Under the pieces are notes generated by a model that worked only from the letters and a program-made list of their open reading frames with translations, was not told where the DNA came from and made no database searches. From assembly GCF_058153355.1 (NCBI RefSeq), contig NZ_CM177019.1: a stretch of 64,000 nt of DNA, one strand, 5' to 3'. Below are positions 20,160 through 20,515 of this stretch, piece by piece (the first letter of the stretch is position 1; each line of letters begins with the position of its first letter). The position numbers and the translations under genes were made by a program.

Positions 20160-20515
20160 GCATGATAAGACACGCCTGCGTTGCATCAGGCATTGGTGCA
20201 CGGTGTCGGATGCGGCGCGTGCGCCTTATCCGACCTACGGTTCAGGCCTGTAGGCATGATAAGACGCGTCAGCGTCGCATCAGGCATCTGCGCACGGTGT
20301 CGGATGCGCCGCGTGCGCCTTATCCGACCTACGGTTCAGGCCTGTAGGCATGATAAGACGCGCCTGCGTTGCATCAGGCATCTACGCATAGCTGTCGGAT
20401 GCGGCGCGGGCGCCTTATCCGACCTGCGGTTCAGGCCTGTAGGCATGATAAGACGCGTCAGCGTCGCATCAGGCATTGGTGCACGGTGTCGGATGCGCCA
20501 CAAGACACATCCGAC
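20160..20515. repeat. BIME array: about four tandem ~94-bp units built from REP sequences
   Basis: Unit-start motif gcatgataagacgcg recurs at ~20160, 20254, 20348 and 20443; units contain gtcggatgcggcgcgtgcgccttatccgacctacggttcaggcctgtag. Confidence 0.8.

Follow-up and report, generated by a model that had tools for sequence, protein, structure and literature searches.

Three tandem arrays of REP-pair units between co-directional genes of the Escherichia coli cod-prp-yah region, and their possible action at the RNA level

The subject of this study is a 64,000-nucleotide stretch of DNA (termed 'the window' below; all coordinates are positions within it) from contig NZ_CM177019.1 of assembly GCF_058153355.1, and in particular three blocks of tandem repeats, made up of REP (repetitive extragenic palindromic) elements, that occupy its codB-prpE, prpC-prpB and yahI-yahG spacers. 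The window corresponds to the mhp-lac-cyn-cod-prp-yah stretch of the Escherichia coli chromosome and is inverted relative to that of K-12, so that these genes are found on the minus strand. Gene annotation and comparison place codB at 18746-20005(-), prpE at 20522-22408(-), prpC at 23933-25102(-), prpB at 25356-26246(-) and yahI at 41351-42301(-); the start of yahG (43921-45339(-)) was placed after the 1419-nt K-12 gene, the mechanical open reading frame (ORF) reaching to 45360. The genes prpBCDE form a single operon. The first array (array 1) lies in the 3' untranslated region of prpE, the last gene of that operon, with codB as its downstream neighbor; the second (array 2) lies inside the operon; and the third (array 3) lies between yahG and yahI. 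All three are extragenic, falling between annotated stop and start codons. In each case the two flanking genes run in the same direction, and the array lies on their sense strand, 3' of the stop codon of prpE, prpB or yahG.

A survey of the window with Tandem Repeats Finder (TRF) returned exactly three long-period arrays, with periods of 93-95 bp and scores of 337-588. Twenty dinucleotide-preserving shuffles of the same stretch, scored with the same program as a control, yielded no score higher than 57 and no period longer than 24, which places the three arrays far beyond chance and bears out the original prediction of ~94-bp tandem arrays at three intergenic sites, whose flanking gene pairs were likewise correctly named. 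Every unit consists of a y-type and a z-type REP hairpin, mutually inverted, with a GTAG/CTAC foot and an internal mismatch, in keeping with published definitions of the bacterial interspersed mosaic element (BIME) (PMC3333891) and with the earlier description of the units as REP pairs. The three arrays hold 18 REPs in total (15 detected by a strict pattern and the remainder by looser scans), which match, exactly or almost so, the y, z1 or z2 consensus of imperfect palindromes 30-40 nt in length. In ViennaRNA folds the free energy (dG) of the individual hairpins ranged from -9.7 to -22.6 kcal/mol, where shuffled sequences gave about -5 to -10, and the conserved mismatch appeared as an internal loop; folds of whole arrays on the mRNA strand gave z = -6.9 and -6.0 against shuffles. 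The GTAG/CTAC foot is kept in 14 of the 18 REPs, the exceptions being a GTAC at 20156, a CTGC at 20424-20427, the truncated y that terminates array 1, and a z2 whose CT/AC is split by an insertion sequence (described below). The REP subtypes differ from site to site: the z1 REPs are 37 nt in length, the y and z2 REPs of array 3 are 35 and 30 nt, and the other two arrays carry a y variant (TGTCGGATG...CCGACCTAC, here y*) in which a compensated change has turned one stem pair from C:G into T:A. The units, which had been described as nearly identical, are so within a site (86-100% identity) but not between sites (67-79%).

Array 1 (20156-20521), delimited with TRF, REP scans, the unit register, the tokenised spacer and the Rfam naRNA4 model, occupies most of the codB-prpE spacer (20006-20521) and ends at the prpE stop codon; the interval first proposed for it, 20160-20515, matches the array but falls short of that stop, to which it extends through the truncated y. 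TRF reported it at 20156-20499 with a period of 94 and 3.6 copies (score 535) and also with a period of 189 (score 588), a super-period that exists because two z1 variants alternate along the array in an ABAB pattern. Its order is z1, y*, z1, y*, z1, y*, z1 and truncated y, which amounts to eight REPs or, as had been predicted, four units, each of 94-95 bp with linkers of 11-12 bp. The codB-proximal z1 (20156-20192(-)) is degenerate, with its GTAC foot and an ATCATGC arm, and folds at only -9.7 kcal/mol; it is followed by a y* at 20204-20238(+) (-18.8), a z1 at 20250-20286(-) (-14.8), and then, as established by REP scans and folds, a y* at 20298-20332(+), a z1 at 20344-20380(-) whose GCAACGCAGGCGCG apex is common to the first z1 (seen also in the unit register), a y* with the CTGC foot at 20393-20427(+) and a z1 at 20439-20475(-). 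The final element (20486-20521(+)) is a truncated, y-derived hairpin with a perfect 13-bp stem and a dG of -22.6 kcal/mol, and on the mRNA that stem begins 6 nt past the prpE UAA. Seven alleles were read (the window and six others), and in each of them only 0-6 nt separate the prpE stop from a y-type hairpin foot. At the opposite end of the array, the mRNA strand bears a run of six uridines past the last REP (CCCAUUUUUU, plus-strand positions ~20146-20155); as it stands ~7 nt away from the stem, this was not called as an intrinsic terminator.

Array 2 (25144-25347), supported by TRF, REP scans, folds and Rfam, lies in the prpC-prpB spacer (25103-25355), and was reported by TRF at 25142-25334 with a period of 93, 2.1 copies and a score of 337. 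It comprises a 36-nt y* at 25144-25179(+), a z1 at 25195-25231(-), a second y* at 25237-25272(+) and a second z1 at 25288-25324(-), with a y fragment, degenerate in sequence, beyond them at 25328-25347; the four REPs form two 93-bp units, again the number predicted, whose linkers measure 15 and 5 bp. All four were identified by REP scans and folds, and both z1 elements contain, by target scan, an exact 11-mer target of the insertion sequence IS621.

Array 3 is divided by such an element. Its left piece (42351-42378(+)), recognized by REP scan and spacer tokenising, is the yahI-proximal z2 REP, cut after ...ATCAGGCCT by IS621, while its right piece (43659-43898; y, z2, y, z2, y) was recovered by TRF (43657-43898, period 93, 2.6 copies, 97% matches, score 463), by REP scans and by two Rfam naRNA4 matches of 74.9 and 68.8 bits. 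The REPs of the right piece are, from the yahI side, a y of the GTAGACC variant at 43678-43712(-) (REP scan and fold), a z2 at 43724-43753(+), a consensus y at 43771-43805(-), a z2 at 43817-43846(+) and a y at 43864-43898(-) that lies 22 nt past the yahG stop; REP scans located them, and target scans found an exact IS621 target in both z2 elements. The order z2, y, z2, y, z2, y thus gives six REPs and three 93-bp units, the linkers being 17 and 11 bp in length; the count of three units plus an interrupted one that had been put forward was therefore too high by one, the actual total being two intact units and one interrupted.

The intervening element is an IS621-like sequence of 1278 bp (42379-43656(+)), assigned by its transposase match, its target match and its full-length identity of 97.6% to copies annotated as IS621. 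It consists of a 192-nt left non-coding end, in which Rfam found no match at gathering thresholds, a transposase ORF (42571-43551, 326 aa) that matches PF01548 and PF02371 (the DEDD/IS110 type) as well as NF033542 at 253 bits, and a 105-nt right end; no terminal inverted repeats were found at its ends. A CT core flanks the copy at 42377-42378 and 43657-43658, and the junctions read ATCAGGC-CT-[IS]-CT-AC within the z2 REP, an exact instance of the natural IS621 target ATCAGGCCTAC with its CT core (Durrant 2024, PMC11208160). Insertion of IS621 into REPs has been described before (Choi 2003, as cited in PMC1525189). The proposal that these arrays serve as IS621 landing sites, with the z-type REPs as targets, is supported by the insertion at ATCAGGC/CT/AC in array 3 and by copies in the arrays of other genomes (given below). 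Exact targets remain in arrays 2 and 3 (two in each); array 1 of the window has none, holding three copies of the one-mismatch form ATCATGCCTAC together with its degenerate first REP.

Published classifications (after Gilson and Bachellier) distinguish BIME-1, a single z1 and y pair with a long conserved L linker that bears a site for integration host factor (IHF), from BIME-2, in which z2 and y are joined by short linkers and repeated in tandem (Ton-Hoang 2012, PMC3333891), and further recognize atypical BIMEs, which are chimeric combinations of BIME-1 and BIME-2 parts and are likewise multi-copy (PMC3333891). Array 3 has the composition of BIME-2 (y and z2) and exists in multiple tandem copies that vary between strains. 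Arrays 1 and 2 depart from BIME-2 in containing z1, and from BIME-1 in their linkers of 5-15 bp and their two to four tandem copies; their z1 and y* elements, short linkers and multiple copies are those of atypical BIMEs. From these known classes the three arrays differ in no point of substance. The three blocks are thus E. coli REP/BIME arrays, array 3 a BIME-2 and arrays 1 and 2 atypical BIMEs, an identification that is close to certain. A CRISPR array, with its identical direct repeats and unique spacers, was considered and ruled out: here successive repeats are inverted, and the 5-17-bp linkers between them recur as well. The REP/BIME class of element has long been known, at loci where it was already noted; good conservation among the tandem copies of a locus, and a copy number that depends on the strain, are likewise on record (PMC3333891). 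The K-12 RefSeq annotation carries no repeat_region features in this region, and a literature search combining prpBCDE with 'repetitive extragenic palindromic' gave no match. Outside the arrays the window holds three isolated REPs, of which one is a y* and the others are z2, at 13226-13255, 13906-13930 and 17381-17405; the last, at 17381-17409, holds an exact IS621 target.

The only Rfam matches in the window are five to naRNA4 (RF02564), distributed across all three arrays, each complete over model positions 1-77 and scoring 59.7-74.9 bits against a gathering threshold of 59.5; array 1 has another two units, which reach 51-58 bits. That model is itself the y-linker-z BIME unit of the REP325 element, and the matches are a reflection of common REP sequence and not of a demonstrated small RNA. 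The better-scoring orientation (iY-linker-Z) is gene-sense at 20253-20424(-) and 25198-25269(-) and antisense to yahG and yahI at 43681-43843(+), which means that the polarity of the BIME unit with respect to transcription differs between the sites.

To survey variation between strains, the flanks were used as anchors in megablast searches of 5,426 complete E. coli genomes, and systematic samples of 60 rows were read per locus. Copy number was found to vary at all three loci, the positive outcome of a check that the original prediction had proposed. Across codB-prpE, the 50 sampled rows that span both flanks implied one unit in 16 cases, two in 28, three in five and four in one, and individual sequences that were read contained one unit (JA0257), two (K-12), three (ET490), four (the window and 2020CK-00188) and eight (O157:H7 86-24), for an overall range of 1-8. 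At prpB-prpC, 24 of the 60 sampled rows were REP-free, 15 had one unit, one had two (like the window) and one had three, while 18 were split hits of the K-12 type, which has four units (range 0 to at least 4); the REP-free spacer, read in Z0117EC0005 (extracted locus 904-947), is 44 bp in length and represents the 'empty site' of array 2. At yahG-yahI, the spans in 60 sampled genomes indicated from less than one to at least four units, with four in both K-12 and 2020CK-00188. In all cases the flanks are conserved and length changes in whole units, and the same codB-prpE spacer length recurs across many related strains, which suggests copy-number alleles that persist within a lineage and are not hypermutable.

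The O157:H7 86-24 codB-prpE spacer, at 893 bp (extracted locus 3207-4099), contains 16 REPs, whereas K-12 REP clusters are quoted as having no more than 12, and its adjacent units have private variants in common, which points to recent local duplication. Unit-wise change is visible both there, in the adjacent units with identical variants, and in the ABAB pattern of z1 elements in array 1. The arrays grow and shrink by whole units, which would come about through unequal recombination, slippage or the action of a REP-associated Y1 transposase (RAYT, or TnpA-REP), with strain-specific alleles as the outcome; TnpA-REP has been shown to cleave and recombine BIMEs in vitro (PMC3333891). A separate rearrangement was noted in strain SCU-171, in which a deletion joins a truncated codB to a truncated prpB with loss of prpCDE (extracted locus 2627-3637); an origin by recombination between arrays 1 and 2 was rejected, the junction lying inside the coding sequences of codB and prpB. 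The codB-prp segment of the window (18700-26300) shares only ~94-95% identity with most E. coli genomes (~98% with a few), and the first 20 kb of the window ~99% with many genomes; these values suggest that the segment is a divergent, recombinant prp allele. Among the genomes searched, 305 have IS621 in the codB-prpE array, at its codB-proximal z1 REP, and 27 have it in the yah array. Natural IS621 targets at these loci differ by single bases between strains, array 1 of the window having lost its exact target.

Because the arrays are located on the sense strand, 3' of stop codons, their transcription would be expected to yield runs of stable hairpins. Such runs most likely act locally on RNA: they would partly attenuate transcription into the downstream gene, in a manner that is partly Rho-dependent and stronger with more hairpins, and would at the same time shield the upstream message (that of prpB, prpE or yahG) from degradation by 3'-to-5' exonucleases. 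At codB-prpE, the array would end or attenuate prp transcripts ahead of a ~150-bp unique segment upstream of codB. Within the operon, array 2 could act only as a partial attenuator and as a protector of the prpB 3' end, since prpCDE must be transcribed through it and the 44-bp REP-free allele exists. In addition, the hairpin 6 nt past the prpE stop may dampen the termination of prpE translation, an idea that has its basis in a 2015 study by Liang and colleagues, said to concern REPs within 15 nt of a stop codon.

The precedent for the two principal effects is REP325, in which 12 hairpins separate two co-directional genes, yjdM and yjdN, and which has been found to stabilise the upstream mRNA and to attenuate the downstream gene by ~8-10-fold, with a ladder of hairpin-ended transcripts and with partial Rho-dependence only when the array is full-length (Harris et al. 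2026 preprint). Its effect on the upstream mRNA ranged from ~3-fold at its native locus to 160-fold on overexpression (Harris et al. 2026 preprint). By analogy, the arrays of the window may tune transcript read-through and stability at their own loci, a proposal for which the balance is even. Taken as a whole, the observations are best explained by BIME arrays that act locally on RNA and change by whole units, and a probability of about 0.6 is assigned to that explanation.

Several points weigh against this explanation. An RNA-level effect at codB-prpE, prpB-prpC and yahG-yahI is one that we infer solely by analogy, and the REP325 study itself reported that half-lives were not uniformly changed by REPs and that their effects depended strongly on context (Harris et al. 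2026 preprint). The prpB-prpC array is missing in ~40% of sampled genomes, and copy numbers are widely variable; strains can therefore do without the arrays, whose effects, if any, may be neutral or incidental. The mRNA strand of none of the arrays displays the excess of C over G that is typical of Rho-utilisation sites, and a consensus scan of 19800-25600 revealed no intrinsic terminator at either prp array (nor a sigma-70 promoter). Finally, the orientation of the units of array 3 with respect to transcription is opposite to that of arrays 1 and 2.

The main competing explanation holds that the arrays are selfish or neutral passengers, seeded and amplified by a REP-associated transposase or by slippage and recombination and tolerated in spacers in which their effect is small, with no selected function at the three loci. 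The many genomes with a 44-bp, REP-free prpC-prpB spacer, the wide range of unit numbers (0 to at least 4, and 1-8) between conserved flanks, the toleration of IS621 within arrays (in 305 and 27 genomes) and the in vitro activity of TnpA-REP upon BIMEs (PMC3333891) are all readily accommodated by it. It is nevertheless unlikely, although a serious contender: a stop-codon-proximal hairpin is kept in every codB-prpE allele that was read, the alleles appear lineage-stable (with identical spacer lengths in many related strains), and the magnitude of the REP325 effects (~3- to 160-fold upstream and 8-10-fold downstream) makes it improbable that a transcribed array of 4-8 hairpins would be neutral with respect to expression.

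A more elaborate extension of local action on RNA would treat the copy-number alleles as a heritable, stepwise 'rheostat' that sets PrpB:PrpCDE stoichiometry and insulates codBA in a lineage-specific fashion, with IS621 as a further switch. If correct, codBA would be insulated from propionate-induced read-through, and the alleles available for such adjustment would number 0 to at least 4 units within prpBCDE and 1-8 between prpE and the codBA promoter; a smaller variant would add that the YahH frame (discussed below) may be translated, thereby suppressing attenuation. The extension is speculative and, on present evidence, quite improbable.

Still less probable is an action of the arrays upon DNA or the nucleoid, whether as binding sites for gyrase, HU or Pol I, as cruciforms, or through naRNA4-like, HU-bound non-coding RNAs that would link REP sites and shape supercoiling or the structure of the nucleoid. 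Array units do attain the Rfam gathering score for naRNA4, nucleoid condensation by HU and naRNA4 via REP cruciforms has been proposed (Qian 2015), and the binding of gyrase, Pol I and IHF to REP or BIME sequences has been summarized (PMC1525189 and PMC4765031). Judged by length, however, the linkers of 5-17 bp are too short to be the long, IHF-binding L linker of BIME-1, and the REP325 study lent the condensation model no support, finding that neither deletion nor overexpression of that element affected the nucleoid, that HU alone bound naRNA4 with no stable HU-crfDNA-naRNA4 ternary complex, and that REP-REP contacts were absent from Hi-C data (Harris et al. 2026).

ORFs do run across the arrays, with repeat peptides of 31 aa where the period is 93 bp and of 63 aa across the 189-bp double unit; array 1, with its period of 94-95, holds a reading frame only across that double unit. 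The most conspicuous is an ORF in the yahH (b0322) frame, identified by frame comparison at 43427-43942(-), which crosses array 3 into the right end of IS621, contains the repeated peptide …AGCGVNALSGLRVAQESVGLISVAHQAFVTI… and is 89% identical to YahH. It is most likely spurious, which is also the mainstream view of yahH. The idea that the arrays encode genuine, YahH-like, repeat-containing small proteins (for which one may cite that identity, the continued listing of yahH in the yahG-yahI array by K-12 RefSeq, the fact that the NCBI pipeline PGAP, in other strains, calls either 'protein YahH' or a hypothetical protein at this site, and ribosome footprints on yahH/REP23 in enterohaemorrhagic E. 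coli (EHEC) (Neuhaus 2016, PMC4765031)) is very improbable, as no array-crossing ORF reaches the cut-off of a Pfam or NCBIfam family, ORF length and frame shift with unit number (and here with the IS621 insertion also), units of period 94-95 shift the frame, arrays 1 and 2 have their long ORFs on the strand antisense to the prp genes, REP constraints account fully for the array sequence, and curated annotation has dropped yahH for that reason (PMC4765031). The repeated-peptide ORFs that the original prediction dismissed as artefacts thus exist and lack a family match, but its verdict has to be softened for the yahH frame, for which 'artefact' is, given the EHEC footprint claim, very likely rather than certainly the correct label.

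The practical consequence is that the three blocks deserve labels as REP/BIME repeat regions, and that the ORFs across them should not be called genes; beyond such good annotation the importance of the finding is small. The loci do, however, provide a natural allelic series (0-4 units in the prp operon, 1-8 after prpE, and alleles with and without IS621) that could be used to test a recently proposed model of length-proportional attenuation and mRNA stabilisation by REP arrays.

Several additional features were observed in the yah portion of the window. A four-gene cluster encoding an ABC transporter of the sugar or AI-2 type (32085-36521(-)) is located between yahK and yahJ; it lacks a K-12 counterpart and is present in 2020CK-00188. 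An IS66-family element (36899-39367), with HTH_Tnp_1 at 36974-37402, TnpB_IS66 at 37399-37746 and DDE_Tnp_IS66 at 37766-39337, is absent from the same place in 2020CK-00188, and an 8-bp flank overlap fits a target-site duplication. The yahJ ORF (40169-41341(-)) encodes 390 aa against 460 aa in K-12, in a region that is collinear with 2020CK-00188 apart from small indels, and yahJ is, as judged from its sequence, probably frameshifted or prematurely stopped in the window.

Comparison with better-characterized systems places the three arrays as follows. The REP between malE and malF is reportedly a stabiliser of mRNA 3' ends (as described by Newbury and colleagues in 1987), and array 2 would resemble it in consisting of intra-operon REPs 3' of a more highly expressed upstream gene; the malE-malF element is a single REP pair, whereas array 2 is multi-unit, and a like role of array 2 is putative. 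The insertion in array 3 agrees with IS621, a bridge-RNA-guided element of the IS110 family (Durrant 2024, PMC11208160), in its target, its CT core and its 192-nt left end ahead of a 326-aa DEDD/IS110 transposase, and its identity to other annotated copies makes it an isoform of that element. The yahG-yahI element that carries yahH is named REP23 in K-12, and REP23 of K-12 and EHEC is like array 3 in its spacer, its 93-bp unit of y and z2 and its ORF frame (PMC4765031); the two differ in unit number (four in K-12 and five repeat blocks in EHEC, against three in the window) and in the disruption of the yahI-proximal z2 by IS621 in the window. In REP325, the source of naRNA4, the attenuator and stabiliser roles are experimentally established, whereas the loci of the window are known here from sequence; REP325 comprises 12 hairpins (y and z2) against 4-8 in the arrays of the window, two of which contain z1, and in array 3 the better-scoring naRNA4 strand is antisense to the genes. 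What REP325 and the three arrays have in common is their basic architecture, that of a tandem series of y and z hairpins situated between co-directional genes.

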